Positions 8,914 through 24,914 of a DNA stretch of 26,075 bases are shown in pieces. Position 1 is the stretch's first letter; each line of letters starts with the position of its first letter. A model generated the notes under the pieces. It worked only from the letters and a program-made list of their open reading frames with translations, was not told where the DNA came from and searched no databases. Source of the stretch: Candidatus Hydrogenedentota bacterium (GTDB taxonomy: Bacteria; Hydrogenedentota; Hydrogenedentia; Hydrogenedentales; CAITNO01); the NCBI GenBank assembly GCA_903902895.1, contig CAIUWO010000484.1, forward strand, positions 1 to 26,075, in the 5' to 3' direction. The translations under genes and the position numbers were made by a program.

Positions 8914-11421
8914 TCAAGAAAGGCCGGAAGATGGCTGGCCGTTGTGGAGCATTTCGCTCACCCTGACGACCAGATCCCTTTCGGAGAAAGGCTTCGTGAT
9001 GAAACAGGCCCCGTCACCCGGCATGCCGCCGCCGAAAGTGATCTCGTCCGCATTGCCGGACTTGAACAGGACCTTGCTCTTTGGGTGGAGAAACAGGATG
9101 TTTTGGGCCAGAATGTGGCCGCTCATTTCCGGCATGGTCACATCGGTCATCAGCAGATCAATCTCTCCAGTGTATGCCATGGCCAAGTGGAGGGCGGCGC
9201 CCGGAGTGTTCGCCCGCAGCACGCTGTGCCCGTCATGTTCAAGCACCGACGCGGCCCATGCCATGAGGTCCAGGTTGTCCTCGACCAGCAGGATGGTCCC
9301 CTTGCCGGGCATGGGCGGCGGCGATGACGTTTCCGTCGGCTCCAAAACCGCCCCACCCGCATGGCGGGGCAGATAGATACTGAAGGCCGTACCGTGCCCT
9401 ACCTCGCTGCGGACTTCGATGAAACCACCGACCTGTTTGACAATGCCATAAATGGTCGCCAAACCCAAGCCCGTGCCTTTGCCCACCTCTTTTGTTGTGA
9501 AAAACGGCAAGAATATCTTGTCCAGCGTTTCACTGTCCATGCCGCAGCCGTTGTCGCTTACGGTGAGTACCACATACTCCCCGGGCGCAACGAATCCGTC
9601 GTCGCCGCGTTCGGATTCAGTGATGCTGCGGTTCTCTGTTCCCAGGGCGACATTGCCGGTGTCGGCGATGGCGTCCCGCGCGTTGATGCAGAGGTTGGCC
9701 AGAATCTGGTCTATTTGGGATGGGTCCATCAAGACCGTCCAGAGACCCTCCCCAGGAGACCAGTCAAAGACAATTTTCCTGCCCATCACCGATTGAAGCA
9801 CCTCGAGCAGGCCCGTTACAGCCTCGTTCAGGTTCAGCACCACGGGCTCGACACTCTGCCTGCGGGCAAAGGCCAGCAGTTGGTTGGTCAGGGCGGCGGA
9901 GCGGGTGGCGACCTTGTGGATTGTTTCCAGGTCGGCGCGCAGCGTTTGCTCCAGCGACCCGTTGCCAAGCGCCAGCTGGGTGTAGCCCAAGATCACAACC
10001 AGCATATTGTTGTAATCGTGGGCCAGACCGCCCGCCAACCGGCCCAAGGATTCCATTTTGTCAGCCTGCCGAATCTGGTGTTCGCTCTTGACCCTGTGCT
10101 CCTCAAACCGCTTGCGGTCGCTGATGTCCCGCAGGAACGCGGCCATCAGCCCGTCTTCGATGGCATAGTGCTGGACACTGATCTCGACATCATGAATCGT
10201 GCCGTCCTTGTGGCGGTGCCGTCCTTCGAAACGATCTTCGCCCTCTGCCCTTATTTTCTCTATATGGGCGGCGATGTTCTCGCCCGTCTCGGCGGCGTCC
10301 AGGTCGGCGATGTTCATGCCCATCAGTTCCTGTGCGCTATAGCCGCTCATCCGGCAATACGCGTCATTGACCTCCAACAGACGACCCCGCATGTCCGTCA
10401 ACCAAAAGCCGTCCATGGCCGCATGAAGGATGGTTCTGTGCCGTCCCTCCCTTTCCTGCAGCGCCTGTTCCGCCCGTTTGCGGTCAGTGATGTCCCTGGC
10501 GATGCCCTGAAAAGCAGTGAGCGGGTCTGCCGCATTCTTGAAAGAGACCGCACTTGAGGTGTGCCAGCGCCATGTGCCGTTGATGTGCCGCACGCGATAC
10601 TCGATGCCCTCCTGTCGTTGTCCCGTCTCGGTCACGCGGCGCAAGAATGCCCGGCATTCCTCAACGTCATCGGGATGGACGAATGACTCGAATGAACGTC
10701 CAATCACCTGTGCCGTCGGGTGGCCGAGAACTGCGGTCCAGGCAGGAGCGACGAAGGTAAACAGCCCGGCGGCGGTGATCGTATATATGATGTCGTAACA
10801 ATTCTCGACCAAGAATCGGTACTTTTCCTCGCTCTTCCGCAGTTCCTCCTCGGCCTGCTTGCGGTCGCTTATGTCGGCGAGCACGACATGGCACAAAGGC
10901 GGGCGGTCTTCGTCCCAGGCGACGGTCGCATCAAGATGGGCCCAGAAGGTCGTCCCGTCCCCTCTTGTCAGTCGCAGGCCATGTGCCTGCGCCTTGCCTG
11001 TCTCAAAGAGCCGCTTGCTGGTCAGATAGTAAGCGTCCTGACCCTCTTTGGCAAGGAACGTGAAGAAACTCTGCCCGACCAGCGCGTCGCGTTCCACGCC
11101 CAGCAAGCCGGCGGCGGCAAGATTGGCCTCCACGATGAGCCCCCACTCGCTGAGCGTGCAATAACCCACCGGCGCAAGGTCGTACAGGTCGGAATAGCGC
11201 GCCCGGGCCGCGTCCAGCTCCAACTGTGCCTGGCGCAAATACTCGTTCTGCATCTCCAACTCAGCCTGATGGACGCGCAGTTCGTGCACCGTTCGCCGCA
11301 GTTCTTCCGGTGCCAATAAGCCGGAGTCTTCCGGCGAGCGGTCCAAGCCGTGCCGCACACTCTCTTCCGCCTGCTGCCGCAACTCAGGGGCGTTGCGGGG
11401 TTTCCTGTCCTTGCTTTTCAT
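8914..11421 (-). CDS. cytoplasmic PAS/PAC hybrid sensor histidine kinase (coiled coil, three PAS domains, HisKA, HATPase_c, C-terminal receiver)
   Basis: No TM segments. An N-terminal coiled coil is followed by three PAS-like blocks. H-box ESLGRLAGGLAHDYNNML. HATPase motifs NLCINARDAI, DNGCGMD, GTGLGLATIYGIV. Receiver domain ILLVEDNLDL...LLMTDVTMPEMSG...KPF. ATG at 11421 is preceded by GGGAG. Confidence 0.85.
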   Translation of the reverse strand: MKSKDRKPRNAPELRQQAEESVRHGLDRSPEDSGLLAPEELRRTVHELRVHQAELEMQNEYLRQAQLELDAARARYSDLYDLAPVGYCTLSEWGLIVEANLAAAGLLGVERDALVGQSFFTFLAKEGQDAYYLTSKRLFETGKAQAHGLRLTRGDGTTFWAHLDATVAWDEDRPPLCHVVLADISDRKQAEEELRKSEEKYRFLVENCYDIIYTITAAGLFTFVAPAWTAVLGHPTAQVIGRSFESFVHPDDVEECRAFLRRVTETGQRQEGIEYRVRHINGTWRWHTSSAVSFKNAADPLTAFQGIARDITDRKRAEQALQEREGRHRTILHAAMDGFWLTDMRGRLLEVNDAYCRMSGYSAQELMGMNIADLDAAETGENIAAHIEKIRAEGEDRFEGRHRHKDGTIHDVEISVQHYAIEDGLMAAFLRDISDRKRFEEHRVKSEHQIRQADKMESLGRLAGGLAHDYNNMLVVILGYTQLALGNGSLEQTLRADLETIHKVATRSAALTNQLLAFARRQSVEPVVLNLNEAVTGLLEVLQSVMGRKIVFDWSPGEGLWTVLMDPSQIDQILANLCINARDAIADTGNVALGTENRSITESERGDDGFVAPGEYVVLTVSDNGCGMDSETLDKIFLPFFTTKEVGKGTGLGLATIYGIVKQVGGFIEVRSEVGHGTAFSIYLPRHAGGAVLEPTETSSPPPMPGKGTILLVEDNLDLMAWAASVLEHDGHSVLRANTPGAALHLAMAYTGEIDLLMTDVTMPEMSGHILAQNILFLHPKSKVLFKSGNADEITFGGGMPGDGACFITKPFSERDLVVRVSEMLHNGQPSSGLS

Positions 11422-11744: not shown

Positions 11745-12476
11745 TCACCGAAACACCCCTTTTACCGGCTGCACAAGGTTGTATGGCGGCCAGGGGCCGC
11801 TCAGCAGCATCTTGGCAGACTCGTTGCGGTCCAGCATCTCAAACGCGCTGCGGAATGACTCAATACAAGAGCGCCTCACCAAGAAATGGAGTGACAGTAC
11901 GGGCATGCGGCAGGGGCCGCTGGGAAGCGGGGCATACTCGGACACGTGCCGCACAAACAAGCCCCGAAACACGGCGACCGCCCGTTCGCCAAGGGCGTCC
12001 GCCGTTTTGGCCGAGAGGGTCTGGCGGGCGTAAAGCGCCTTTCGCGAGGCAAGGTATTGTTTTCCGCCCGAGACGTCCGGAGAATCGCAGCAGGGGGGGG
12101 GCGTGGATGCGGTGCCGGGGTCTCCGTCCAGGATCGCCCGGATGCTCATCTCCACACATCCCTCCACGCCATCAAGGGCGCTCGCGAATTCCGCGCCCCG
12201 CTCTCTCAAGAGCTCCGCAACCCGTTCCGCGTTGGGCACCAGACAGCCGTAGCGCATGGGAAGCACGGTGCGCACCGCATGCAGGCTTTCAATGACGGCT
12301 GCGAATGCCTGCAACCGGCCCACGGTGGGCGCAATGTCCTCCTCCGGGATTTGTGAGACTGCGGCAAGAAGCCCCTGCTCGGCCAGGGCGGAAACGCGAC
12401 GTCCGCACCCGTCCAGGGGCAGTTCTGCGGGTGCTTTGGGGTCCTCGCGCATGATGCAATAAACAAGGTGGCTCAT
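11745..12476 (-). CDS. gas vesicle protein, GvpF/GvpL family
   Basis: Starts YCIMRED...; the C-terminus carries the family hallmark LLSGPWPPYNLV. Its ATG overlaps the stop of the upstream paralog (ATGA at 12473-12476). Confidence 0.8.
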   Translation of the reverse strand: MSHLVYCIMREDPKAPAELPLDGCGRRVSALAEQGLLAAVSQIPEEDIAPTVGRLQAFAAVIESLHAVRTVLPMRYGCLVPNAERVAELLRERGAEFASALDGVEGCVEMSIRAILDGDPGTASTPPPCCDSPDVSGGKQYLASRKALYARQTLSAKTADALGERAVAVFRGLFVRHVSEYAPLPSGPCRMPVLSLHFLVRRSCIESFRSAFEMLDRNESAKMLLSGPWPPYNLVQPVKGVFR

Positions 12477-13303
12477 TGCGGCTCATCCTCGTCGGCGCCG
12501 TTGCCCCCCAACCCGGCGCAGGCATGGTAGGGCGGCCACGGTCCAGTCGCCACCGCCGCGATGCCCTGCCCGGCATATCGCGCGTCAATGTCGTCAATCT
12601 GTTCGCGAAAGGCCCCGACGCGGTCGCGGCCCAGCAGGACGGCGACGTGCAGAATCATGTCCGCATTTCTGCCCGACGCCTTGGCCTCCTGCAGCTTCAG
12701 CGGGAACAAGTCGAGGCTCAGTTCCTCCAACTGGGCCTGAACGCTCTTGGCGAGGGCAAAGCCGCACTGCTTGGATAGCCGCAGCGCGTCCCTGTGAAGC
12801 TGCTTCTCCTGGAGATAACGGGTTCCGGGGGACCCGGACGCGCGCGCGCTTTTCGCCGCAAGAACAGGGTCTTGGGCCATGTGCCACGCTGCCGCCCTTT
12901 CTGCGTCCAGAAAGAGCTTGACGGACCATTCCTCCTTGTCGGAAATGTACTCCAGAAACCCGGCAATCTCTTCCGCGTCCGGGGCCACAAAGTCCATGAG
13001 CGCATCGGTGTTGGCAAACACGGCCCCAAACCGAACGGGCAGCACGGGAAACCCTTTCATCAAAGCCTCGGTGACACGCTCATGCGCACAGGCGCGCGGA
13101 ACGAGCCAAGCCGGGTCGGCCAGTCTGGCTTCCGCGTCGTCGCCGGTGAACTCGTCCAGGGAGACCACGCTATACACGGCGGCCACCTCGCCCACGTCAA
13201 GGACACAGACCGCTGCCTGGTCATCCACGCCCACAAGGCCTGCATTTGCCCGGGCACCGGCTGGCGCAAAGCAATACACGTACACACCTTGGTCTGCCAT
13301 CAT
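12473..13303 (-). CDS. gas vesicle protein, GvpL/GvpF family (second paralog)
   Basis: The track ORF is 12473..13486. I place the start at MMADQGVYVYCF (ATG ending 13303). It overlaps the Cdc48-like stop as TAATGATG and is preceded by AGGAAAA. The C-terminus reads ATGPWPPYHAC. The 61 upstream codons are Arg/Gly/Pro-rich read-through. Confidence 0.75.
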   Translation of the reverse strand: MMADQGVYVYCFAPAGARANAGLVGVDDQAAVCVLDVGEVAAVYSVVSLDEFTGDDAEARLADPAWLVPRACAHERVTEALMKGFPVLPVRFGAVFANTDALMDFVAPDAEEIAGFLEYISDKEEWSVKLFLDAERAAAWHMAQDPVLAAKSARASGSPGTRYLQEKQLHRDALRLSKQCGFALAKSVQAQLEELSLDLFPLKLQEAKASGRNADMILHVAVLLGRDRVGAFREQIDDIDARYAGQGIAAVATGPWPPYHACAGLGGNGADEDEPQ

Positions 13304-15474
13304 TATTTTCCTGATTTCAGCGCCCGTGTGGGGCCCGCAGCCCCGGTTCGCCTCGTGCGGATGCCCTCCAGGGCGGCCAGCAGCGCGGCGCGCGTGATTA
13401 GCACCTGCTCCCCCCCGGGGGGTGGGCTGTCCGGTCCGCGTTTCGCCAGCGTCTCCCGGATGGCCCCGATGGCGGCGCTTTTGCATGCGGCCTGAACCTC
13501 TGCCCCTGTGAAGCCGTCCGAGGCGGCCGCCAGTTCCTCGGTGCTCACGTCCTCCGCCACGGGTTTCTTGCGAAGGCCTATGTCGAAGATTTCCCGCCGT
13601 TCTTCCTGGCTGGGCGGCATGATCTCGATCAGAACGTCGAAACGGCCGGGCCGCAGCAGTGCGGGATCGAGCGCATCGAGACGGTTCGTCGCCGCCAGCA
13701 CGACGACACCCGTCAGTTCCTCCACGCCGTCCACCTCGGTCAGAAACTGGCTGACGACGCGCTCCGTGACGTGGGCGTCGGTGCCACCCGAACCGCGCAC
13801 CGGCACCAGGCCGTCAATCTCGTCGAAAAACACAATGCACGGCGCGGCCTGCTTTGCCTTGCGAAAGATTTCGCGCACGGCCTTTTCGGACTCGCCCACG
13901 TATTTCGACAGGAGCGACGGACCTTTAACCGAAATGAAGTTCACCTCGGTCTCATTGGCCAGGGCCTTGGCAACCAGCGTCTTCCCGCAGCCGGGGGCGC
14001 CCGAAAGCAGGATGCCCCTCGGGGGCGTGGTGCCCGCCTGCGTGAAGAGTTCGGGATGCCGCAGCGGCCATTCCACCGCCTCCTCAAGCTGCTGTTTCAC
14101 ATGCCGGAGCCCGCCGACATCGGCCCAGCCCACGTCGGGAACCTCCACGAAGACCTCGCGGATGGCGGACGGCTCCACCTCGCGGAGGGCCTCGGTGAAA
14201 TCATGCATGAAGACGCGCAGCTTCATCAGGGACTCATAGGGAATCCGTGCGGCGGCAAAATCAATCTCCGGCATGATTCCCCGCAGACACACCATGGCCG
14301 CCTCCCGGGCGAGAGCCTCCAGGTCAGCGCCCACGAATCCGTGGGTGATTGCCGCAAGCTGGTCAAGGTCCACGTCCTCGGCGAGGGGCATGCCCCGTGT
14401 GTAGATCTCCAGGATTTCCCGCCGTCCGTTGCGGTCGGGAATGGGCACGCAGATTTCCCTGTCAAAGCGGCCGGGCCGCCGCAGCGCGGGGTCAAGCGCG
14501 TTTGGAATGTTCGTTGCGGCAAGGACAATCACATGCTCGCGTTTGGCCAGTCCGTCCATCAGCGCCAACAGTTGCGCCACCACCCGCTTTTCCACCTCGC
14601 CCAGAACCTGGTCGCGCCGCGGGGCGATGGCGTCGATCTCGTCGATGAAGATGATGCTTGGGGCCTTGCGCGCGGCCTCCTCAAAGATCTTGCGCAGGTG
14701 GGCCTCGCTTTCGCCGTAGAATTTGTGCACGATTTCCGGGCCGTTTACGGAGAAGAACGCCGTCTCGGTCTCGTGGGCCACGGCGCGCGCGATCAGGGTT
14801 TTTCCGCAGCCCGGGGGCCCGTACAGCAGCACCCCCTTCGGCGCGGCCACTCCCAGGCGTTCGAAAACTTCCGGATACCGCAGCGGCAGTTCCACAATCT
14901 CCCGAATGCGGTCAATTTCCCGCCGCAGACCGCCAATGTCCTCGTACGAGATCGCGCTGGACTCTTCGCTCTTCTCGGCGCGCCCCACTTCCATCGTCGT
15001 GGTTGAATTGATAACCACGGGGCCTTTGGGCGCGGTGCTGGTCACCTTGAAATCCACGGAACGCGTTCCGAACAGCGTGGCCCGGATACGGTCACCGACC
15101 ACAACCGGCGTGCCGTCGAGGAGACTGCCGATATAGGTCAGGTCCCGGTCGCGCGGGGCCGTCGTCACCGGCACAATGCACACGCGCTGCGCCGGGCTGG
15201 CCGAAATCTTTCGCACTTCAACCATCTGGTCCAGCGCGGTGCCCGCGTTCTCCCGGGACAGTCCGTCAATTTGAACGCGAGACTGGCCGCGCTGTTCCTT
15301 GTAGGCCGGCATGGCCTTGCATACGGTTTCCCGCTTGCCGACGATGGTCACGATATCGCCAATCTCCAGGCCGAGCGCGGCCATGTCTGCGGGGTCCAAC
15401 CGCGCCAGACCGCGGCCGGCATCTTTGCCCGAAGCTTCGCTGACCTTCAACTTCACCGTCTTGGTCGCTGTCAT
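13303..15474 (-). CDS. Cdc48/VCP-like AAA+ ATPase (N-domain plus D1 and D2 AAA modules)
   Basis: A Cdc48-type N-domain (KLKVSEASGKDAGRGLARLDPADMAALGLEIGDIVTIVGKR) is followed by two Walker A motifs (GVLLYGPPGCGKT and GILLSGAPGCGKT), each with Walker B (IIFIDEID and IVFFDEID) and second-region-of-homology arginines. ATG at 15474 is preceded by AGGAAGGA. Confidence 0.85.
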   Translation of the reverse strand: MTATKTVKLKVSEASGKDAGRGLARLDPADMAALGLEIGDIVTIVGKRETVCKAMPAYKEQRGQSRVQIDGLSRENAGTALDQMVEVRKISASPAQRVCIVPVTTAPRDRDLTYIGSLLDGTPVVVGDRIRATLFGTRSVDFKVTSTAPKGPVVINSTTTMEVGRAEKSEESSAISYEDIGGLRREIDRIREIVELPLRYPEVFERLGVAAPKGVLLYGPPGCGKTLIARAVAHETETAFFSVNGPEIVHKFYGESEAHLRKIFEEAARKAPSIIFIDEIDAIAPRRDQVLGEVEKRVVAQLLALMDGLAKREHVIVLAATNIPNALDPALRRPGRFDREICVPIPDRNGRREILEIYTRGMPLAEDVDLDQLAAITHGFVGADLEALAREAAMVCLRGIMPEIDFAAARIPYESLMKLRVFMHDFTEALREVEPSAIREVFVEVPDVGWADVGGLRHVKQQLEEAVEWPLRHPELFTQAGTTPPRGILLSGAPGCGKTLVAKALANETEVNFISVKGPSLLSKYVGESEKAVREIFRKAKQAAPCIVFFDEIDGLVPVRGSGGTDAHVTERVVSQFLTEVDGVEELTGVVVLAATNRLDALDPALLRPGRFDVLIEIMPPSQEERREIFDIGLRKKPVAEDVSTEELAAASDGFTGAEVQAACKSAAIGAIRETLAKRGPDSPPPGGEQVLITRAALLAALEGIRTRRTGAAGPTRALKSGK

Positions 15475-15492
15475 GATGCGTGGTGTTCCTTC

Positions 15493-16017
15493 CTACGGGG
15501 TCTTGACGAACTTTACCTCTAGCATGCCGTTCCGGCAGTTGTGGCTCATGCTGCTCTCGGGAAATTCGCCCGGCAAAATCACCTCTTTCTGGTACTTCAT
15601 CGCGCCGCGCGCCGCGCTGATGACCAGAATGTCGTGCGCCAACTCGAGGCAAACGTCCTTCTCGTCGACACCGGGCATCTCGGCCACCACCAGGATGTGC
15701 GTCTCTTCATCGAAGATGTCCACGATCGGCTCGCGCACCTCATCGACCACCGGTTTCCCCGTCCCGGCGTCGGGCCGCACGTTTCCGAAGGGTTCCACCT
15801 CGAACTCGTCCTTGCCCAGGCCAACCTTGACGTTGAAGCCATAAATGCCCCGCAGTTTGCCCCCGGGGCCGTGAATCTCGCCGGACTTGCGCAGTTCCTC
15901 CCCTTTCTCAGCGAGCTCACTAAGCTTCTCCATCATGGCGCCCAGACCGCCGAGCAATTTGCCGATCCCGGAAATGCCTTCGCTGTCAGAGTCTTTCTTC
16001 TTTTCATGCTTGGCCAT
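15493..16017 (-). CDS. Hsp20/alpha-crystallin family small heat-shock protein with a ~60-aa low-complexity N-terminal extension
   Basis: The alpha-crystallin domain reads REPIVDIFDEETHILVVAEMPGVDEKDVCLEL...DILVISAARG...YQKEVILPGEF...NGMLEVKF. It lies 12 nt downstream of the activator gene and 18 nt upstream of the Cdc48-like gene. Confidence 0.8.
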   Translation of the reverse strand: MAKHEKKKDSDSEGISGIGKLLGGLGAMMEKLSELAEKGEELRKSGEIHGPGGKLRGIYGFNVKVGLGKDEFEVEPFGNVRPDAGTGKPVVDEVREPIVDIFDEETHILVVAEMPGVDEKDVCLELAHDILVISAARGAMKYQKEVILPGEFPESSMSHNCRNGMLEVKFVKTP

Positions 16018-16029
16018 AGTGATTGCCTT

Positions 16030-17460
16030 TCATGGTTGAGATATCTTATATTCCTTCACCTTGACGTGTATTGTCTTATAGTCCACGCTCAGTATCCGGG
16101 CGGCTTCCGCCTTGTTCCACCGGGCGTGAATCAGAACCTCCGTGATAACCTGCTTCTCGATGTCCGCCACGGTCTTTCTGACCACTTCTTTGAGCGACAC
16201 ATTTCCCGCGATGCAGTCTATTTCTGTGATCTGCTGGACCGTGTTGGAGGCCGCCTTTTCCTTTTTTGGACTAATCGTCATGTTCTCCGGCAGGATGTAT
16301 TTGTCGCACCGCAGTGCCGCCTGCCGAATGACGTTGCGCAGTTCGCGCACGTTGCCCGGCCACTCAAAGGCAAGGAGCAGTTCCACAGCCTCCTGCGAGA
16401 AGCCCAGAATGTCTTTGGTCAATTCCGCCTTGGCGGACATCAGAAAGCGGGTGGCGAGAAATATGATGTCCTCCGGACGGTCACGCAACGGGGGGATGCT
16501 GATGCTGAATTCACTCAGCCGGTAATACAGGTCCTTTCGGAAAAGATTTTTCTGCACCATGGCGCCCAAATCCTCGTTGGCCGCGCCGACCACGCGGATA
16601 TCCACGTCAATGGGCCGGATCCCGCCGACACGCCAAATCTTCCTCTCTTCCAGCGCGCGCAGCAGTTTGGCCTGGAGCGCGAGGGTAAGGTTTGATATCT
16701 CGTCAAGAAAGAGCGTGCCTCCCGAGGCCATTTCCATCTTGCCGGGCTGTGACTGATGCGCGCCGGTATAGGACCCCTTCTCATGCCCAAACAGCTCGCT
16801 CTCTATGAGCGTCGGGGTTATTGAGCCGCAGTCCACAGGCACGAAAGGCCCCTTCGCGCGGTTGCTCAGGCGGTGGAGGCCCTCCACAATCAATTCCTTG
16901 CCGGTGCCCGTTTCACCGGTGATGAGCACGGTGAAGTCCGTGGGGGCCACAAGTTCAACGCTGGCTATCAGGGCGGCGATCTGCCTTCCCGTGCCCATCC
17001 GTTCGGCGAGAGACTCATGGCCCTCAATGCCGTTGGCATGCGAACCCAAGTAGGGGTAGCGCTTCCTGAGCGCCTTTTGCACGGCAACGATGAACCTTTG
17101 AAGGTCAAACGGCTTTAGCAGATAATCATCGGCGCCGCTCTTTATGGCCTGCACAGCCATGTTGATGTCGCCGAAGCCTGTAATCAGGATCACGGGCATG
17201 CCCGGATAGATTTTCTGTATCTGCTTGAAAAGCTCCATCCCGCCCATTCCAGGCATTTTCAAGTCCGTCACCACCACGTTGACCTTCTCGTTCCGAAGCA
17301 CTTCCAGGGCGCCCTCCCCCGTTGTTGCCTCGAGCAGGCCGCACCCCAGATTTTCGATGGCCCGGCATAACAACGCGCGCACATCATCCTCGTCATCCGT
17401 GACGAGCACCCGACCCCATTCCTTGTCCTCTGTCTTCAAAGCATCGAACTCCTTCGCCAT
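16030..17460 (-). CDS. sigma54-dependent Fis-family response regulator (NtrC-type enhancer-binding protein)
   Basis: Receiver domain (VLVTDDEDD...VVVTDLKMPGMGGMEL...KPF). Sigma54-interaction AAA+ domain (VLITGETGTGKELIVEGLH, and ESELFGHEKGSYTGA as a GAFTGA-type loop). C-terminal Fis HTH (NKAEAARILSVDYKTIHVKVKEY). Confidence 0.9.
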   Translation of the reverse strand: MAKEFDALKTEDKEWGRVLVTDDEDDVRALLCRAIENLGCGLLEATTGEGALEVLRNEKVNVVVTDLKMPGMGGMELFKQIQKIYPGMPVILITGFGDINMAVQAIKSGADDYLLKPFDLQRFIVAVQKALRKRYPYLGSHANGIEGHESLAERMGTGRQIAALIASVELVAPTDFTVLITGETGTGKELIVEGLHRLSNRAKGPFVPVDCGSITPTLIESELFGHEKGSYTGAHQSQPGKMEMASGGTLFLDEISNLTLALQAKLLRALEERKIWRVGGIRPIDVDIRVVGAANEDLGAMVQKNLFRKDLYYRLSEFSISIPPLRDRPEDIIFLATRFLMSAKAELTKDILGFSQEAVELLLAFEWPGNVRELRNVIRQAALRCDKYILPENMTISPKKEKAASNTVQQITEIDCIAGNVSLKEVVRKTVADIEKQVITEVLIHARWNKAEAARILSVDYKTIHVKVKEYKISQP

Positions 17461-17654
17461 GATGGACCCACCTGCGGTCCTTTTTTATGTCGCTCGAGGC
17501 GGCCGGAGCAAACACTGTTAATTGGGAAAGGGTCTTTCCAAGCTCTTGAAATGCGTTTTGCCGTAACTAAGGTAAGGCTTCCACTCTGCGGGCCGCGAAC
17601 GGTCAGGCACCCTAAACAAACATAGCTCATATTCGCCCAAACTGGTCGATTATA

Positions 17655-17672
17655 GTTGCATTAGCTTGACCA
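17655..17672 (-). promoter_or_regulatory. weak candidate sigma54-like -24/-12 element upstream of the activator operon
   Basis: The minus strand reads TGGTCA-AGCTA-ATGCA, with GG/GC spacing as in the consensus but degenerate hexamers. It sits in an ~80-bp AT-rich patch that also contains TATAAT, so it could equally be chance. Confidence 0.2.
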
Positions 17673-17946
17673 TAATCACTATTTTAACATATTTGAGTTT
17701 TTTTTTGTGGACCGGGTGGGTCATATGCCCCGCTGTTTCCGCAACGGACCGGAGCGCCAGATGGGGGTCCTGCCGTCTCGTCGCGGGGACGGCAGGGGAA
17801 GAGTCCGCGCGCAAGCCGCCAGTTACGGGCGCCAGGAGCGGTCGGTTCCCCATAGCCTCTTTCCGCGGTATGGGACACACGCCGCTTGGCAGCCCGGACC
17901 GGTTCTGTGTCTAAGCAGCCCGGCCTTTGGCAGAATTGCCGGGGGT

Positions 17947-18282
17947 TCACAAGGCGTGGGCCGCCGGCGTGCTCTTTGCGGCGCCCGACGTCTCGAGTTC
18001 CGCAATGCGCTGTTTCAGTTGTTCGATCTCGTCTTCCCGCTGCGTGGCCGCGGCCTGCGAGTTGAAGTAGGGATTGTTTATCCACCAATCCATGCCCATT
18101 TCACGGGCCTTGTCCACGGAGGCGATCATGAGGCGAATCTGAATGGTGAGCAGTTCAATGTCGACAAGTTTTATCTTGATGTCGCCCGCAATGATCACCC
18201 CCTTGTCCAGTACGCGTTCGAGCACATCGGCGAGCGTCGCGCTTTGGGTGGAGTGCTGCATTGACCGTTGTTGGATAGCCAT
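17947..18282 (-). CDS. gas vesicle protein, GvpA/GvpJ family (GvpJ-like, with a C-terminal coiled-coil tail)
   Basis: Core reads LADVLERVLDKGVIIAGDIKIKLVDIELLTIQIRLMIASVDKAREMG. Start taken at MAIQQRS (ATG ending 18282), preceded by AAAGGA; the track ORF begins 5 codons earlier at a TTG. Confidence 0.75.
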   Translation of the reverse strand: MAIQQRSMQHSTQSATLADVLERVLDKGVIIAGDIKIKLVDIELLTIQIRLMIASVDKAREMGMDWWINNPYFNSQAAATQREDEIEQLKQRIAELETSGAAKSTPAAHAL

Positions 18283-18293
18283 AACGATTCCTT

Positions 18294-18641
18294 TCAAAGA
18301 AGCTTTCCTAGAGGCCCTAGGTCAAGGTTGAGGTCTTCGTCTTCGAGGCCGAACTCAATTTTCAGCCGGTCGATCTCTTCGGCGAGCCGCATGAATGTGG
18401 TCCCCAGCCGTTCCACTTCCTCATCGTTCAGCGACCCGCCCTCCATGCGCCGGAGTGCCTGGCGTTCGAGCAGTTGCCGGACAAGTTCGACAACCGTCAG
18501 AACCAGTTGTCCCAGCCCGTTTTTTACATTTTCCGGGTCAAGCTTAATCCGGGGCCGGCAGGGCTCTGTGGCGGGGGTCATGAGTTGGGCAAAATCGCCC
18601 ATGCACCGGGAATCCGTTTTGACGCTCTGGGTGGTGTTCAT
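18294..18641 (-). CDS. gvpK: gas vesicle protein GvpK
   Basis: GvpK signature: GLGQLVLTVVELVRQLLERQALRRMEGGSLNDEEVERLG...FGLEDEDLNLDLGPLGKLL. Its ATG overlaps the stop of the upstream gvpA-family gene (ATGA at 18638-18641). Confidence 0.8.
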   Translation of the reverse strand: MNTTQSVKTDSRCMGDFAQLMTPATEPCRPRIKLDPENVKNGLGQLVLTVVELVRQLLERQALRRMEGGSLNDEEVERLGTTFMRLAEEIDRLKIEFGLEDEDLNLDLGPLGKLL

Positions 18642-18871
18642 GGCTTGCTCCCGGCCGGACAGGGCCTGTTGGCCGCGTTCTGGGCGCTGATCTCGCGCGC
18701 CGTTTCCACGGAGGACAGCATGACCTGAAGGCTCAGGTACACAAGGTCGATGTCGGCCACCGAAATCACCACCTCTCCCACTATGACAACCCCGGCGTTG
18801 AGGACGCGGTCAAGGGCTTCGCACAAAGAGACATGCTCTTCGGCTTCCATGTCCCGGGCTGACTTGCTCAT
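18638..18871 (-). CDS. gas vesicle protein, GvpA/J/M (PF00741) family, minor paralog
   Basis: Core reads LCEALDRVLNAGVVIVGEVVISVADIDLVYLSLQVMLSSVETAREI. Its ATG overlaps the ArsA-like stop (ATGA at 18868-18871). Confidence 0.75.
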   Translation of the reverse strand: MSKSARDMEAEEHVSLCEALDRVLNAGVVIVGEVVISVADIDLVYLSLQVMLSSVETAREISAQNAANRPCPAGSKP

Positions 18872-20955
18872 GCGGGCCCCCCTCCGGGTTCGGCAGCGCC
18901 GGGACCGCCGCCGCCGCCGCCGTTGTCCTTCGCCGCGGGGTCGGGCGGGTGCGCCGCACGCCGCTTCCGGACCGCGCGCACAATCGGCGGTGCCGGTGCC
19001 TGCGGCCCCTCAAAGAGAAGCAGGCCAAGGGCTTTGAGGTCGTCCCAGTCGGACGGTTCGGCGAAGCGGTATACCACCGATTGCGCGGTCTGGGCGAAGG
19101 CCCGCCTGTATCGGCTCTGCACGCGGGATTCGGCACGGCCGCGGGCGCTGCAGAAAAGACACTCCGCCGGCGGCGTGGCGAGGTTCAAAAAGAGCGTGGG
19201 AACACGTATCCCGGCATTGCGGCACGCGGCCATCAGGTCCGTGGTTTCCTCAAAGGCCATATCCGTCAGCACGCTGACGGCATAGAGGCTGGTCCTTTCC
19301 GGGTCCACCAGCAGCGCGCGCAGGGCTTTGAGTTGCTTGGACATCTCCACCATGAGCTGCATCATGTTGGGCAGCCGGAACACATTTCTGTACTTGATAA
19401 GGATGTTGAAAAACACCCTGAGCCAGTCCTGGACCAGTCCGGGAAGTTCGAGGAGGCGTATGAGGTGCCCGGTGGGGGCCGTGTCGAGGACAATAGTGCC
19501 GTATTTCCCTGACTGGAGCAGTTCCACCACGCGCGTCAACGCCATCATCTCATCCAAGCCCGGAGGGGACATGTCCATGATGCTTTCCATGACCTCTCGG
19601 TCAAAACTTAGGTCGATGGTCACACCTTTGCCCGTAAGAGAACCGAAAAACGCGGCGACTTCATCGCTGTACTGCTGCTTGAGCGCCTCGAACTCCACCT
19701 TCTCATCCACCTCCAACGCCGACAGCCCCGGGCACAATACGGTCTCCCGCGAGCCAACCACCACCCCGAGTCGGTCAGAAAGGGAGTGCGCCGGGTCAGT
19801 GGAGAACAGGAGGATATTCTTGTCCGGCGCTTGCCGGTTCAAACGAAACGCGGTGGCCGTGGCCAGGGTGGTTTTCCCAACCCCCCCTTTTCCCGCAAAA
19901 AGCAACAGTGATGCGCCGATCGGGGGGAGGGTGGCCGCATGGTCAACGCATGGTTTCGTGGCGGTGTCGGCGGCGCGGGGCTGCGGGCCGACCGACAAGG
20001 GCTTAACGGTTTCCCAGAGGGCCCGGAGTTTCTCGCTCCCCTGCACCCTGCCGGCCTGCAGCGGAATTTCCCAGAGGGCGTGCTTGGCGAAGGTCTGCGA
20101 GGCGATGGAGTACTGTTCATATTGGCGGCCGCGCAGTTCGGAACAGAACGGGCACTGTATGGAGACAGGAACGGTCTGGTTGATCAGGATGTCCATGACG
20201 GGAACTCTCATGCTTTGCAGGGCCTCAAGCAGCCGTCCAGTCTCCTGAACGCTCAGTGGCTCGGCAATCATTACCGGCACGAAGCGGCACCTGACGGCGT
20301 CCTGGAGCAGGGCGGTGATGCAGTCGATGGAGGCCATGGTTTGCTCAATGAACATGTCGGCCTGGCTCTTCGTGTAGAATCCGCGGTAGAGTCTGTACAT
20401 GTAGCGGTTCTGGGCCAGCATGGCGTCGAGGGACTGGTTCCATTTTCGCAGCATTTGGGGCAGTTCGAGGAACCGCAGGGCGTGCCCCGTGGGCGCCGTG
20501 TCGACCACAATGCAGGCATAGGCGCCGGAGTCCACGAGCGCGGCGATCTCGATAAAGGCCATTATCTCATCGAGACCCGGCATGGACAGTTCCAGGAGTT
20601 GCGTGATGTCATAGTCGTCGAGAACCGTTCCGTGCAGGGCTATCTCCCGGAGGTGTCCGGCGTGGGCCGCCTTGAACCTGGCCAGACTGTCCTGGGTGTT
20701 GACCTCCAGCACCTCAAGGTTCGGCAGGGGGGCCGAACCCGCGAAGCAGTCTTCGAGTGAGTGTGCCGGGTCGATGGAGACCACAAGAAAGCGGCGGTCC
20801 GGGGACTGGCCGGCCAGCCGCAGTGCGGCTGCGGCGGCACAGGTTGTTTTTCCCACGCCACCTTTCCCGCCAAACAGAATCAGCCCGAGCCCGGCTTCCC
20901 GGAAAAACGAGGGGGCGTCGGTCTGTGCGGGTTGGTTGGCGTTCGGGGCGTTCAA
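18868..20955 (-). CDS. fused tandem ArsA/Get3(TRC40)-like P-loop ATPase (two complete halves in one polypeptide)
   Basis: Half 1 has GGKGGVGKTT, VDTAPTGHALRFLELP and CPFC. Half 2 has AGKGGVGKTT, LDTAPTGHLIRLLELP and CLFC. The only available start is TTG at 20955, preceded by AGGGTG and overlapping the gvpG stop (AATTGA). Confidence 0.85.
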   Translation of the reverse strand: MNAPNANQPAQTDAPSFFREAGLGLILFGGKGGVGKTTCAAAAALRLAGQSPDRRFLVVSIDPAHSLEDCFAGSAPLPNLEVLEVNTQDSLARFKAAHAGHLREIALHGTVLDDYDITQLLELSMPGLDEIMAFIEIAALVDSGAYACIVVDTAPTGHALRFLELPQMLRKWNQSLDAMLAQNRYMYRLYRGFYTKSQADMFIEQTMASIDCITALLQDAVRCRFVPVMIAEPLSVQETGRLLEALQSMRVPVMDILINQTVPVSIQCPFCSELRGRQYEQYSIASQTFAKHALWEIPLQAGRVQGSEKLRALWETVKPLSVGPQPRAADTATKPCVDHAATLPPIGASLLLFAGKGGVGKTTLATATAFRLNRQAPDKNILLFSTDPAHSLSDRLGVVVGSRETVLCPGLSALEVDEKVEFEALKQQYSDEVAAFFGSLTGKGVTIDLSFDREVMESIMDMSPPGLDEMMALTRVVELLQSGKYGTIVLDTAPTGHLIRLLELPGLVQDWLRVFFNILIKYRNVFRLPNMMQLMVEMSKQLKALRALLVDPERTSLYAVSVLTDMAFEETTDLMAACRNAGIRVPTLFLNLATPPAECLFCSARGRAESRVQSRYRRAFAQTAQSVVYRFAEPSDWDDLKALGLLLFEGPQAPAPPIVRAVRKRRAAHPPDPAAKDNGGGGGGPGAAEPGGGPA

Positions 20956-21215
20956 TTGGCACCCTGGCTCTCGTCATCGTCGTCCGTTGACGCAATCTCG
21001 GCCTTGTCGAGCAGTTGCAGGAGCTGCTCCTCCCTGGCATCAAACTCTTCCTCCGTTATCCTCCCCGTTTCAAGCATCATGTACAATTCGGCAAGTTCAA
21101 CGCGGATCGATTCGGCGGCATTTGCGACCTCCTGCTGGGCGGCGTTCTGGATTTCGCGAAAAATGAACATGAGACTCCTCGCCGGAAAAAGCAGGATGTC
21201 ATCGATGATAAACAC
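20952..21215 (-). CDS. gvpG: gas vesicle protein GvpG
   Basis: MFIIDDILLFPARSLMFIFREIQ...ESIRVELAELYMMLETGRITEEEFDAREEQLLQLL matches the GvpG pattern. I prefer the internal GVG start (GTG ending 21215, preceded by GGGGAG) over the track ATG at 21287, which would overlap gvpF by 43 nt and add 24 non-conserved residues. The start is uncertain. Confidence 0.6.
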   Translation of the reverse strand: MFIIDDILLFPARSLMFIFREIQNAAQQEVANAAESIRVELAELYMMLETGRITEEEFDAREEQLLQLLDKAEIASTDDDDESQGAN

Positions 21216-21244
21216 GGCCTGATACTCCCCGGTTGGCCTGCGGG

Positions 21245-22006
21245 CTACATGGACAGTTGCATTTCCACAAAGTTGTACGGCGGCCATGGACCGCTGAAAT
21301 CGAAGGAGAAGGTGTCGTCGAAAAGCTTGGCGGCGTCCATGACGGCGTTTTCGAAGTCCTTCTGTCGGTCGCTCGCCACCAGGCAGGCAAGGCTCAGAAC
21401 ATCACGGTCCTCCCGCGGGTCATTTTCCAGAATCTCAACGCAGCACGGGAGGAGAAACCGTTTCACCGTCTCGGTGTGCTCATCGCGGTCCGTGTTCAGC
21501 GCCTTCTCGAACAAGCGCCCCAACTCGAGCTTGTCACCCTGGGAGGGTTCCCGCCCGCCGCTGAACATGCGGTCCCGAAGCGAGGCGATATTCGGATGTC
21601 TGCTGACAAAGTACTCGAAAAAGTTCGGCACATTCCAGCAGACCCGGAGGCCCATTTCCACGTTTCCCGCAACGCGCTCCAACTGTTCGAGCAACGCGTC
21701 TTGGTTTGCGGACAGCAGCTTGCACACGTCCTTGGTGTTCTTGGCGATATTGCCGAAGGACATGGGCAGCAGGCCGGATTTGCCCATCAAGTGCATCAGG
21801 ACGGCCTGATGGGCGGCCAAATGGCGCCGTTGCGGACGCAGTTTTTCATCGGGAACACCGCTTACCGCGGCAGCCAAAGCGCCCTCAATAACATAGTGCA
21901 CACATCCGCCGTCGATGCCGGAGAGTTCGGCTTCCTCGACCACCTGGTCTGCGGCGACCACTCCGTAAAGGTATGTGCCGCTCGGTGCTGCGATTAGTTG
22001 TTCCAT
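21245..22006 (-). CDS. gvpF: gas vesicle protein GvpF (GvpF/L family), positioned between gvpN and gvpG
   Basis: Begins MEQLIAAPSGTYLYGVV and ends FSGPWPPYNFVEMQLSM (GPWPPYNFV hallmark). ATG at 22006. Confidence 0.8.
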   Translation of the reverse strand: MEQLIAAPSGTYLYGVVAADQVVEEAELSGIDGGCVHYVIEGALAAAVSGVPDEKLRPQRRHLAAHQAVLMHLMGKSGLLPMSFGNIAKNTKDVCKLLSANQDALLEQLERVAGNVEMGLRVCWNVPNFFEYFVSRHPNIASLRDRMFSGGREPSQGDKLELGRLFEKALNTDRDEHTETVKRFLLPCCVEILENDPREDRDVLSLACLVASDRQKDFENAVMDAAKLFDDTFSFDFSGPWPPYNFVEMQLSM

Positions 22007-22103
22007 CTGCCTACGTGCTCCTATTTAGAGCGTGACTGATGAGCACGCCCTGGTTCCTGACAGCCCCGGCAAGCTGTCCGCGCGCCGGCGCTGCGGCGCT
22101 TTC

Positions 22104-22304
22104 CTAGCCTTCTTGGTCGCCGTTTTCAGCGGCGCCCCGCGCCCCGCCCATGGCCCTGGCAAACCGGACTGATTTGATTTGCCCGTCTTCCGTCTTTATT
22201 TCCAGCAGTGTGCTGCAGACAAAACACCGGATCATCCCCTCATAATCGCTGTAAACGTCATCGAGGTCCACGTTGTGTCCGCAGACAAGGCAATTGACTT
22301 TCAT
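22104..22304 (-). CDS. small zinc-ribbon-like protein (two CxxC pairs), 66 aa, unknown function
   Basis: Start taken at internal Met 74 of track ORF 22104..22523 (ATG ending 22304), preceded by AGGAAAGG. Translation: MKVNCLVCGHNVDLDDVYSDYEGMIRCFVCSTLLEIKTEDGQIKSVRFARAMGG..., with C5/C8 and C29/C32. The upstream extension of the track ORF is Arg/Ala/Gly/Pro-rich and looks non-coding. Confidence 0.45.
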   Translation of the reverse strand: MKVNCLVCGHNVDLDDVYSDYEGMIRCFVCSTLLEIKTEDGQIKSVRFARAMGGARGAAENGDQEG

Positions 22305-22600
22305 CAGTGAAGGCCTTTCCTGGTTGCGCCGCTCCGTTCCCGCGGACGGGAGGGTGCGGGTTTGGATGACAATGGCACGGTCAGTCCCGCCCGCCCCCTG
22401 TGTGCGAGGTGCTGCGCGATGAGCCACAGGCGGCGCATCAACCGGCCGGCCAGCGCCGCCTGTCGCAAAACAATGGACACGCTGGCCACATGCGCCATGG
22501 AGACGCCGGTGGAGCTGCGGCACGCCCGGAACCCCTTTATGGTTCCGCCCGTGCGTATTTGGTCGGCAGTCTTGACCATCAACATAAGCGGGGTCCCTTC

Positions 22601-22936
22601 TTAGTATTTTATGCCGAAGCCGGACCCGCTCGCCTTGGGGTGCGGCGCCTCCGGCCTCCTGCGGGGGCCCGCCGGACTGCTGGCGGGCAGATTCTCCCCC
22701 ATCTGGGCCAGGGAGGCGAGCAGGGCCTCCTTTTCGGCGTCGATGGCCTTGAACCGCTCGTCAATGATCCGCACGCGCCTCATGGCCGCCTCCCTTTCCG
22801 AGCCGCGCCGCGCGCGCTCCATTTCAAGGCAGGCGATCTTGATGTAGGCCTTGTGGGGCGGCACTTCCAGGTGCTTGTTCTTCGACAGCGTTTGGACGCA
22901 CTGAAGTCCGCGTGTTGTTCTGTCCGGTATGGCCAT
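22601..22936 (-). CDS. hypothetical basic/coiled-coil protein at the gvpV position of Serratia/cyanobacterial-type clusters
   Basis: ATG at 22936 is preceded by GAGGAGA and lies 11 nt after the gvpN stop. Sequence: ...PPHKAYIKIACLEMERARRGSEREAAMRRVRIIDERFKAIDAEKEALLASLAQ..., with a Pro/Arg-rich tail. The GvpV assignment rests on position only. Confidence 0.5.
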   Translation of the reverse strand: MAIPDRTTRGLQCVQTLSKNKHLEVPPHKAYIKIACLEMERARRGSEREAAMRRVRIIDERFKAIDAEKEALLASLAQMGENLPASSPAGPRRRPEAPHPKASGSGFGIKY

Positions 22937-22947
22937 GGTCTTTCTCC

Positions 22948-24006: not shown

Positions 24007-24081
24007 GCGCGGCGCATGGCCGGTCCTTGCAAGTGTTTCAGCCTGGACCCTGAACCGGCCCTTCCATTCAGGGACGTTGCC

Positions 24082-24885
24082 TTACTTGCGTCCGCGCCGC
24101 GCCTCGGGCTTGGCGGGCTTGCCGGCCGCTTTGGCCTTGGTCTTTACGGGCGCGGTGTCGGGGGCCTTCGCCTCCGGTCTGGGCGCGCTGACGGCGGGGG
24201 CAGACTGCCTGGTCTCTGCTTTGACGGGCGCGGCGGTGCCAGCCCATGCCTGACGGACCCCGGCGAGGTCGGCGGAGACGGCCTCGCGCAGGGCGTTTAC
24301 GTGCGCGCGCAGTCCGTCGAGAATCTCGGTGCGCGTCGCAAAGTCCTGCGAGGCTTCCTCAATGCGCCGGGCCTCCTCGTCTCGCCGGGAACTGTCGCAT
24401 TCCGCGAAAGTTTCACGCTGCGCCTCGGCCATCTCGTCATGGGCCGCTTGAAACACCACGCGCAGGACATCGACCTCGGCCTTGAGCTCCTCAACCCGCC
24501 CGCAGACCTTGGCTACGAACGCGGCCCGGGCCTGTTGGAGCCTGTCGGCTTCGGCAAGCCTTTCGGCCTCGTTCGCGGCGGACTCATCGCGCACGAGCGC
24601 GGCCCGGTCGGCATGGCCTGTGCGCAATTCGGTCCGAAGTTCCTCGCTCGCCTGGGCGCGCGCCGCATTCCACGTCGCAAGCAATGAGGCGACGGCCTCT
24701 TTCGAACTCTGGGCGAATGCACGCTGCTCTTCCATCAATTCGCGGCGTCCGTTCCGCAATGCGCCAATTTCGTCGCTGAGCCTCGTCATGTCATCGGTAA
24801 GTGTTCCCACAGCTGTTCTCCTCTGGTTATAGACGTTAAAGTGTTCGCCGGTTGACGGACGAAGAGTTTCGCCCGCCAACGTCAT
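24082..24885 (-). CDS. alpha-helical repeat protein at the gvpC position (candidate vesicle-surface protein) with a Lys/Ala/Pro-rich basic tail
   Basis: Start taken at the ATG ending 24885 (the track begins at a TTG two codons earlier). There is an internal duplication: ELMEEQRAFAQSSKEAVASL versus EMAEAQRETFAECDSSRRDE. The C-terminus reads APVKAETRQSAPAVSAPRPEAKAPDTAPVKTKAKAAGKPAKPEARRGRK. It starts 29 nt after the gvpA stop. Confidence 0.6.
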   Translation of the reverse strand: MTLAGETLRPSTGEHFNVYNQRRTAVGTLTDDMTRLSDEIGALRNGRRELMEEQRAFAQSSKEAVASLLATWNAARAQASEELRTELRTGHADRAALVRDESAANEAERLAEADRLQQARAAFVAKVCGRVEELKAEVDVLRVVFQAAHDEMAEAQRETFAECDSSRRDEEARRIEEASQDFATRTEILDGLRAHVNALREAVSADLAGVRQAWAGTAAPVKAETRQSAPAVSAPRPEAKAPDTAPVKTKAKAAGKPAKPEARRGRK

Positions 24886-24914
24886 CTCCAACTCTCAGTT
24901 GCCCTCGCCGGGTC

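Follow-up and report, generated by a model that had tools for sequence, protein, structure and literature searches.

We analysed a 26,075-nucleotide (nt) stretch of DNA from a Candidatus Hydrogenedentota bacterium (assembly GCA_903902895.1, contig CAIUWO010000484.1; hereafter the window, meaning the whole stretch), which contains a complete gas vesicle (gvp) cluster. Five minus-strand genes within this cluster encode an NtrC-type sigma-54 activator, an Hsp20-like protein (GvpH), a CDC48-family double-ring AAA+ ATPase (GvpZ) and two GvpL/F paralogs. The best overall explanation, to which we assign a probability of roughly 60%, is that these genes form a Serratia-type operon that includes a small heat shock protein (sHsp) and an AAA+ ATPase acting as a dedicated pair for Gvp proteins. 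The operon is almost certainly the orthologue of the named operon of Serratia sp. ATCC 39006, because the best match of every window Gvp protein holds the same position in a Serratia-group genome.

The junctions between the five genes were re-read in the sequence. The activator gene stops with TGA (16032-16030) and is followed after 12 nt by the gvpH ATG at 16017, and the gvpH stop codon TAG (15495-15493) is followed after 18 nt by the gvpZ ATG at 15474. The final A of the gvpZ stop codon (TAA, 13305-13303) is the A of the next ATG (TAATG, 1-nt overlap), and the stop codon of the gvpF2-like gene lies within the start of the gvpF3-like gene (ATGA, 12476-12473, 4-nt overlap). The coupled ATG at 13303 was taken as the gvpF2-like start; a longer mechanical open reading frame (ORF) at 12473-13486, whose upstream ATG is not the coupled start, was rejected. 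No terminator-like site was found on the minus strand from 17460 to 11745, and the GC content of the five genes is about 0.60-0.65. The gene positions, gaps and overlaps are all as the initial annotation had given them, and its view of one tightly coupled unit is borne out by the short gaps, the overlaps and the lack of an internal minus-strand terminator. Judged from the sequence, the five genes very probably form a real operon. The protein families that it had named were likewise upheld by Pfam and NCBIfam; both GvpL/F paralogs, for example, match Pfam GvpL_GvpF (PF06386) over their full length (174 bits for the gvpF2-like and 137.9 bits for the gvpF3-like product, cut-off 23.6). A chance arrangement is ruled out, because the block recurs in all five of the close homologues sampled and in numerous distant lineages. 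The coordinates of all features are collected in Table 1.

Table 1. Features of the window, with blastp identities to the counterparts encoded by locus L091 of the Serratia group
Feature	Position	Strand	Description	L091 counterpart (identity)
gvrA-like NtrC-type sigma-54 activator, operon gene 1	16030..17460	-	476 aa; receiver + sigma-54 AAA+ + Fis-type helix-turn-helix (HTH)	GvrA (46%)
gvpH, Hsp20-like	15493..16017	-	174 aa	GvpH (48%)
gvpZ, CDC48-family double-ring AAA+ ATPase	13303..15474	-	723 aa	GvpZ (62%)
GvpZ domains	N ~14965-15474; D1 14155-14964; D2 13435-14154; non-conserved tail 13303-13434	-		
gvpF2-like GvpL/F paralog	12473..13303	-	276 aa; Pfam GvpL_GvpF E 7e-51	GvpF2 (30%)
gvpF3-like GvpL/F paralog	11745..12476	-	243 aa; Pfam GvpL_GvpF E 8e-40	GvpF3 (32%)
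gvrB-like PAS hybrid sensor histidine kinase	8914..11421	-	835 aa; three PAS, HisKA, HATPase_c, C-terminal Response_reg (Pfam)	GvrB (26% over kinase core)
Intergenic region 5' of operon	17461..17946	-	486 nt; A/T-rich stretch; perfect TATAAT 17654-17649	
Structural/assembly gvp operon	17947..25139	-	eleven genes; Pfam + best matches in L091	
gvpA	24915-25139	-		
gvpC-like coiled coil	24082-24891	-	no Pfam family	
gvpN	22948-24006	-	MoxR/AAA_5-type	GvpN (56%)
gvpV-like	22601-22936	-		GvpV (44%)
Small Zn-ribbon ORF	within 22104-22523	-	CxxC...CxxC stretch (MKVNCLVCGH...CFVC)	
gvpF1	21245-22006	-		GvpF1 (43%)
gvpG	20952-21287	-		GvpG (50%)
ArsA-like two-domain ATPase	18868-20955	-	695 aa; = Serratia 'GvpW'	'GvpW' (42%)
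gvpA2/S	18638-18871	-		GvpA2 (61%)
gvpK	18294-18641	-		GvpK (54%)
gvpA3/J	17947-18297	-		GvpA3 (53%)
Sigma-54-type -24/-12 element TGGCATGCGTATTGCT	25267..25282	-	one mismatch; 143 nt upstream of gvpA	

The parallel that the initial annotation had drawn to the Serratia order gvrA-gvpH-gvpZ-gvpF2-gvpF3-kinase holds. L091, a Prodigiosinella/Pectobacteriaceae genome that encodes the Serratia-group GvpZ, has the identical order, with gvpN-V-F1-G-W-A2-K-X-A3-Y followed by gvrA(474)-gvpH(167)-gvpZ(720)-gvpF2(262)-gvpF3(222)-gvrB(486)-gvrC(127). A second claim, that this locus differs from Serratia in having a holdase and a Cdc48-like unfoldase in place of GvpH and GvpZ, had no more behind it than the description of gvpH and gvpZ as encoding a 'small' and a 'large' protein, and is refuted. 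In Serratia, GvpZ is an ATPase of the CDC48 family with 720 aa, and Serratia-group GvpH belongs to the Hsp20/GvpH family (that of L091 matches both Pfam GvpH and HSP20), so the Serratia proteins belong to the same families as those in the window. The nearest named relatives of the window CDC48 protein come from Planctomycetota metagenome-assembled genomes (MAGs; 74-76% identity).

The identity of Serratia GvpZ was established from published primers. The protein P0240 (UniRef M9WML1, WP_021013987.1; 720 aa) of Serratia sp. ATCC 39006, annotated as 'CDC48 family AAA ATPase', begins with MSEELKLKV, carries DIPDVRWEDVGGL at residue 451 and finishes with AEVIAEMFGDDA. The gvpZ primers of Tashiro 2016 encode an MSEE start (ATG TCT GAA GAA), VRWEDVGG (GTG CGT TGG GAA GAT GTC GG) and an end in ...AEMFGD (PMC4982088). 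The MSEE start, the VRWEDVGG, which is a hallmark motif opening an AAA module, and the AEMFGDDA end of P0240 agree with these primers. In metagenomes, the 20-nt primer was found on two contigs, L085 and L086; the L085 match was rejected as a chance occurrence in an unrelated ORF. On L086, the primer coincides with the D2 boundary in a CDC48-like gene, which starts with MSEE and stands 3' of a sigma-54 activator gene and a GvpH gene, and a search with the L086 protein led to P0166, whose 90% cluster includes P0240.

GvpZ is assigned to the CDC48 family by TIGR01243 ('CDC48 family AAA ATPase', 891 bits, cut-off 802.65), and Pfam finds CDC48_N (90.5 bits), CDC48_2 (44.5 bits) and two AAA domains. 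Its best match in the Protein Data Bank (PDB) is VAT of Thermoplasma (5g4f, E 1.8e-207, residues 5-675). Both modules carry Walker A (GPPGCGKT at residue 219, GAPGCGKT at 492), Walker B (IIFIDEID at 274, IVFFDEID at 547) and the arginine-finger motif RPGRFD (RRPGRFD, LRPGRFD). As in VAT, the pore loops are aromatic in both rings (KFYGESE at 251, KYVGESE at 524), and matching pore-loop types occur in 111/120 close homologues, so both rings look active. Many archaeal Cdc48 homologues end in ...YG or ...YR, a tail of the HbYX type, the motif that docks onto the 20S proteasome core. The window GvpZ ends in ...ALKSGK, and in 12 gvp-linked homologues no penultimate Tyr follows a hydrophobic residue; no gene for a 20S proteasome or other protease was found among the scanned window genes. 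Because of these two absences, GvpZ is best read as a stand-alone unfoldase or segregase of the hexameric VAT type. The N-domain sets the gvp-linked proteins apart: it is on average 54% identical to that of the window protein in gvp-linked CDC48s versus about 30% in archaeal relatives. Over the ATPase rings, identity is about 55-75% throughout.

GvpH passes Pfam PF05455 by a narrow margin (23.9 bits, cut-off 22, residues 9-135). It also matches Pfam HSP20 (21.7 bits, cut-off 20.8) and ArsA_HSP20, and it scores 129.9 bits against the NCBIfam equivalog 'archaeal Hsp20' (NF041800), under the cut-off of 140. The alpha-crystallin domain spans residues 89-172 approximately, and the best PDB match is a protein of the Hsp20 family (4rzk, E 2.3e-12).

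The linkage of these genes is widespread. In all five inspected close homologues (69-84% identity, one of them a Brocadiia (Planctomycetota) MAG), the CDC48 gene stands between GvpH and GvpL/F genes within a gvp cluster, and a sigma-54 activator precedes the block in four of the five. More distant CDC48 genes lie beside GvpH and/or GvpF/L genes in Flavobacteriaceae, Chlorobiaceae, Rhodothermales, Peptococcaceae and a cyanobacterium. The metagenome contig L086 also carries the GvpH-CDC48 linkage, and in a block on a Methylosinus plasmid the NCBI pipeline itself names a 'gas vesicle protein GvpH' and a 'CDC48 family AAA ATPase'. The block thus recurs in gvp clusters of Gamma-/Alphaproteobacteria, Planctomycetota, Bacteroidota, Chlorobiota, Bacillota and Cyanobacteria. 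Serratia GvpZ has further named relatives in Methylococcales, Chromatiaceae and other Gammaproteobacteria, seen as protein matches only. A scan of a genome collection for CDC48 gave 80 loci, only 5 of them gvp-linked, and the rest served as outgroups and brought the archaeal Hsp20-Cdc48 pairing to light; they are mostly archaeal or unrelated because the back-translated search patterns are generic AAA motifs (IIFIDEID and similar). Searching plasmids by tblastn with the CDC48 protein mainly returned paralogs from haloarchaea and rhizobia that are not part of gvp clusters, and on a Methylocella plasmid an Hsp20 gene lies near a CDC48 gene.

Phylogenetically, 12 gvp-linked CDC48s form a clade with two Synergistaceae sequences in a neighbour-joining (NJ) bootstrap tree (100/100). 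Strict monophyly of the gvp-linked proteins was rejected (0/100), as these two sequences, from L008 (Synergistaceae) and L019 (Fretibacterium), nest inside. No gvp genes were found within 10 kb on each side of the CDC48 gene of L008 or within about 4-6 kb of that of L019. In each of these two CDC48s, the patterns used matched a single Walker A and a single Walker B, so that one ring of each protein may be degenerate. One NJ tree without bootstrapping places archaeal Cdc48s encoded beside an Hsp20 gene as the closest outgroup to the gvp clade. In nine such archaeal loci the Hsp20 gene directly adjoins the Cdc48 gene with no gvp genes nearby; at a tenth, L015, one lies within a few kb. These archaeal Cdc48s also end without HbYX, and 8/10 of the adjacent Hsp20s retain a C-terminal I/V-x-I/V motif. 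In Euryarchaeota, the Phr/HSR1 heat-shock regulons are made up of one gene for an sHsp and one for an AAA+ ATPase (PMC10653856). The GvpH-GvpZ pair probably derives from such an archaeal Hsp20-Cdc48 stress pair that was then specialised for gas vesicles.

The regulatory genes that frame the block resemble those of Serratia. The activator contains Pfam Response_reg, Sigma54_activat, AAA_lid_14 and HTH_8 domains, that is, the receiver, the sigma-54 AAA+ module with a GAFTGA-type loop and the Fis-type HTH of an NtrC-type bacterial enhancer-binding protein. Its sigma-54 contact loop, GSYTGA, is a variant of GAFTGA and is identical in Serratia GvrA; GSYTGA is common to the window activator, Serratia-group GvrA and L081, and G(A/S)FTGA occurs in L084, L086 and L088. 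In the Planctomycetota-type clusters L084 (8410-9477) and L088 (6404-7450), the activator before gvpH has no receiver domain and is 355 and 348 aa long, respectively. The kinase gene of the window is separated from the gvpF3-like gene by a 323-nt non-coding gap and may have its own promoter. No separate response-regulator gene (GvrC) was found 3' of the kinase gene on the minus strand; the receiver is fused to the kinase C-terminus. On the contig of P0112 (JGI 3300075153, 10987-13218), the second GvpL/F is called as a 743-aa fusion to PAS-HisKA-HATPase_c, which is either a true GvpF-histidine kinase fusion or a gene-calling artefact.

In Serratia, the gvrA operon was established by reverse transcription PCR and rapid amplification of 5' cDNA ends; the gvrA promoter is sigma-70-type, and the gvpA1 promoter is sigma-54-dependent and under GvrA control (PMC4982088). 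In the window, no sigma-54 -24/-12 element was found 5' of the activator gene, and by analogy the intergenic region there is presumed to be a non-sigma-54 promoter region. A simple sigma-70 scan gave no minus-strand site 5' of the activator gene; the TATAAT in this region is a visual lead only. A hairpin over the activator ribosome-binding site was dropped because it was no better than shuffled sequences (z = -0.72), and an Rfam scan of the window gave no matches. The element TGGCATGCGTATTGCT before gvpA is likely, again by analogy, to be the target of the gvrA-like activator; GG-N10-GC elements also stand 5' of gvpA in four related loci (L084, L087, L088 and L090), and sigma-54 matches with up to two mismatches are no commoner in the window than in shuffled sequence. 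A second one-mismatch site at 8552-8567 (minus strand) falls between the kinase gene and a DPBB/RlpA-like gene (7845-8252), downstream of the former and upstream of the latter.

A working model can be assembled from these parts and from work in Serratia and haloarchaea. As in Serratia, a non-sigma-54 promoter 5' of position 17460 would drive one translationally coupled message, and its first product, the NtrC-type activator, would turn on the sigma-54 promoter before gvpA. The remaining four products would then appear before or together with the wall proteins. The GvpF2- and GvpF3-like proteins would be essential assembly factors that bind GvpA-family proteins, by analogy with Serratia, where gvpF2 and gvpF3 are essential, and with haloarchaea, where GvpF binds monomeric GvpA (PMC9501494). 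GvpA, GvpJ and GvpM aggregate without chaperones, and haloarchaeal GvpH keeps GvpM from aggregating (PMC9501494). Because of this aggregation, this protection and the binding of GvpA by GvpF, the clients of GvpH and GvpZ are taken to be wall proteins. In the role of holdase or adaptor, GvpH would probably hold or present the exposed, hydrophobic subunits GvpA/A2/A3, and GvpZ would most likely thread and free mis-assembled or aggregated wall proteins. GvpF2 and GvpF3, whose genes are translationally coupled to gvpZ, would take the released subunits into the growing shell. GvpH and GvpZ would then be a dedicated sHsp-plus-AAA+ disaggregase pair that is required under some conditions only. A chaperone or unfoldase role for the two proteins, argued from analogy, stands at about even odds in our judgement. 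The more specific version, in which a GvpH without its oligomerisation tail passes subunits of the GvpA family on to the N-domain peculiar to the GvpZ clade and GvpZ, independently of a proteasome, extracts them from off-pathway aggregates or collapsed shells, is tentative and somewhat doubtful.

Several observations weigh against this proposal. The C-terminal I/V-x-I/V motif of sHsps builds large oligomers, and GvpH has no C-terminal I-x-I/V extension: its chain stops after the last strand (...NGMLEVKFVKTP). Because this motif is missing, activity as a classical sHsp holdase is not guaranteed for GvpH. All gvp-linked GvpH proteins that were compared (window, L002, L003, L006, L081, L084, L086 and L091) likewise stop after the alpha-crystallin domain, with no I-x-I. 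An Octadecabacter plasmid carries a gvp cluster with an Hsp20 gene and no CDC48 gene, and the gvp gene lists of Anabaena, Bacillus megaterium and Halobacterium are without CDC48 (PMC9501494), yet vesicles form in these organisms. Serratia mutants deleted for gvpH or gvpZ had vesicles of unaltered number, shape and stability (PMC4982088), and a 2024 preprint reported that single deletions raised the vesicle yield in BL21-AI, contradicting Hurt 2023.

Other genetic data point the other way. Deletion of gvpH or gvpZ cut or abolished the gas-vesicle signal of the Serratia cluster in E. coli (PMC10344784). Moreover, the in-frame deletion of Serratia gvpZ (primers gvpZ_5R and gvpZ_3F) joins MSEE-(Leu-Glu)-VRWEDVGG and leaves residues 451-720, which are the whole D2 AAA module including its Walker motifs and pore loop. 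Because the allele still encodes all of D2, the absence of a phenotype may not be that of a true null, and the published non-essential verdict on gvpZ may be an underestimate. The initial annotation had regarded normal vesicles after deletion as evidence against its proposal; such a result is on record for Serratia gvpH and gvpZ, and its force is reduced by the D2-retaining gvpZ allele and by the conflicting E. coli data. Dispensability under Serratia laboratory conditions together with a need in E. coli fits a conditionally required helper. Published work treats GvpH and GvpZ as dispensable proteins whose function is unknown, and GvpV, W, X, Y and Z have been reviewed as bacteria-specific and non-essential (Pfeifer 2022, PMC9501494). 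The open-access gas-vesicle literature that was searched holds no statement of what GvpZ is, and no functional link of gas vesicles with Cdc48, an unfoldase, an AAA ATPase or a small heat shock protein. The initial annotation would also have taken common, well-described Cdc48-like genes in gvp loci as evidence against its proposal; such genes are common there, named GvpZ and already knocked out, but are not functionally described.

Three other roles for GvpH and GvpZ have to be weighed. Cdc48-type ATPases are segregases that pull subunits from stable assemblies, and the aromatic pore loops in both GvpZ rings would also suit disassembly and recycling, in which GvpZ and GvpH extract GvpA from collapsed or surplus shells, clear debris, recycle subunits or lower buoyancy. 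The dispensability of both genes for vesicle making in Serratia is what would be expected of a removal factor, and some single deletions increased the yield in E. coli. However, gvpH and gvpZ are probably co-transcribed with the activator and the essential gvpF2 and gvpF3, so they would be expressed early, deletion lowered the signal in another E. coli study, and neither a protease partner nor an HbYX tail is present. We therefore consider a role confined to removal unlikely. Alternatively, GvpZ could remodel or inactivate GvrA, GvrB, the response regulator or an assembly factor, as its position between activator and kinase in a 'regulatory' operon might suggest; a precedent is haloarchaeal GvpD, an NTP-binding repressor that leads to the degradation of the activator GvpE (PMC9501494). 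This is improbable, given that in Chlorobiaceae, Rhodothermales, Peptococcaceae and Flavobacteriaceae the CDC48 gene is surrounded by structural gvp genes and blastp for a sigma-54 activator in the stretches available gave none. The activator is missing in one close homologue as well, and GvpH and GvpF/L, not regulators, are the constant neighbours. In addition, the section headings of Tashiro ascribe transcription control of gvpA1 to GvrA, GvrB and GvrC, and GvpZ is not named among them (PMC4982088).

The two genes might also have hitch-hiked, as an archaeal-type Hsp20-Cdc48 stress pair caught in a mobile gvp island and engaged in general proteostasis without a gas-vesicle client. The same pair does occur in many archaea without gvp genes, where it is heat-shock regulated, and bacterial CDC48s unconnected with gvp genes are found in Sphingomonadaceae, Synergistaceae and on Rhizobium plasmids. 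Yet the gvp-linked proteins group in a clade of their own (100/100) and have a distinctive N-domain, and GvpH has specifically lost the I-x-I tail of sHsps. Adjacency to GvpF/L is retained over at least seven phyla or classes despite rearranged clusters, and the overlap of the gvpZ stop with the gvpF2 start is found in the window and Serratia alike. A mere passenger status is accordingly hard to credit, and a dedicated pair for Gvp proteins remains our preferred reading.

Upstream of the five genes, the structural and assembly operon supplies the remaining vesicle genes (Table 1). It includes the MoxR-type GvpN that the initial annotation had correctly kept apart from the CDC48-like ATPase. 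Serratia GvpN is needed for the growth of bicones into cylinders and GvpZ is not (PMC4982088). The counterpart of the ArsA-like protein, Serratia 'GvpW' (L091, 3046-4959), which has been described as being of unknown function, is itself a 637-aa two-domain ArsA-like ATPase. Because GvpW is ArsA-like, the cluster encodes three different ATPases, counting GvpN and GvpZ; ArsA homologues in gvp clusters were earlier remarked on by Castillo & Saier 2010 (PMC2963123). The gvpA gene is flanked by two GvpC-like coiled-coil ORFs on the minus strand, the one in Table 1 and another at 25710-26069 (start as in the mechanical ORF list). Neither belongs to a Pfam family, and they share the motif AH(D/A)EMA(E/A)AQRET...CDS(S/A)RR. 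The Zn-ribbon ORF of the window lies between the gvpV-like gene and gvpF1; related loci (L087) carry small ORFs of a DnaJ_CXXCXGXG/Anti-TRAP-like kind in the part of the cluster around gvpN. Outside the cluster, the window encodes a protein with PASTA repeats and an FGE-sulfatase domain (18-1784, plus strand) and a 1223-aa YhdP-like protein (1865-5536, minus strand).

The locus is a further copy of an operon that has already been named, mapped and knocked out in Serratia, and the annotation 'CDC48 family AAA ATPase' on Serratia GvpZ is public. Relative to the gas-vesicle literature searched, what appears to be new is the reading of GvpZ as a Cdc48/VAT-type unfoldase, its linkage to GvpH and GvpF/L across phyla, the fact that GvpZ has lost HbYX and GvpH has lost I-x-I, and the likely origin from an archaeal pair. 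Two poorly understood gvp genes thereby gain a concrete, testable role, and a natural system for the study of bacterial Cdc48 becomes available. The question also bears on the engineering of acoustic reporter genes, as removal of gvpH or gvpZ in E. coli gave contradictory effects. If GvpH is an adaptor and GvpZ an unfoldase, a bacterial Cdc48 would for the first time have a defined physiological client, the wall proteins, and gas vesicles would have their first ATP-driven step of quality control or disassembly.

Among known systems, the Serratia cluster is closest. It shares with the window the gene order, the protein families and the tight junctions (the Serratia group has overlaps at gvrA/gvpH, gvpZ/gvpF2 and gvpF2/gvpF3), a collinear gvpA operon with C, N, V, F1, G, W (ArsA-like), A2, K and A3, and a sigma-54 promoter at gvpA with none at gvrA. 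It differs, together with L081, in having an abutting kinase and a separate regulator (127 aa in Serratia), whereas the window has a hybrid kinase after a gap; no homologue of GvpX (TPR) or GvpY was detected in the window, which comes from a high-GC, non-enterobacterial lineage. Haloarchaeal GvpH is similar in that the window protein passes the Pfam GvpH score and both are non-essential gvp accessory proteins, but it pairs with GvpI, and there is no Cdc48-type gene in the haloarchaeal gvp gene lists (PMC9501494).

With VAT and Cdc48, GvpZ shares the N-domain (double-psi barrel and beta-clam), D1 and D2, and the Walker A/B, RPGRFD and aromatic pore-loop motifs of both rings. It differs in the lack of HbYX, in its place in a bacterial gvp-linked clade and in an N-domain that is only about 30% identical to archaeal ones. 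GvpN is also an AAA+ ATPase encoded within the cluster, but it has just one AAA_5 module and lacks both an N-domain and the pore loops of the classic clade. The archaeal Hsp20-Cdc48 pair, like gvpH-gvpZ, has an alpha-crystallin gene adjoining a Cdc48-type gene, while its Hsp20s mostly keep I/V-x-I/V and it has no gvp neighbours. Finally, IbpA/B with ClpB/DnaK offers an analogy only, in which an sHsp holds clients and a double-ring AAA+ motor extracts them; GvpZ is a classic Cdc48 and not an Hsp100, we know of no Hsp70 link for GvpH-GvpZ, and the clients proposed for the pair belong to a single organelle.

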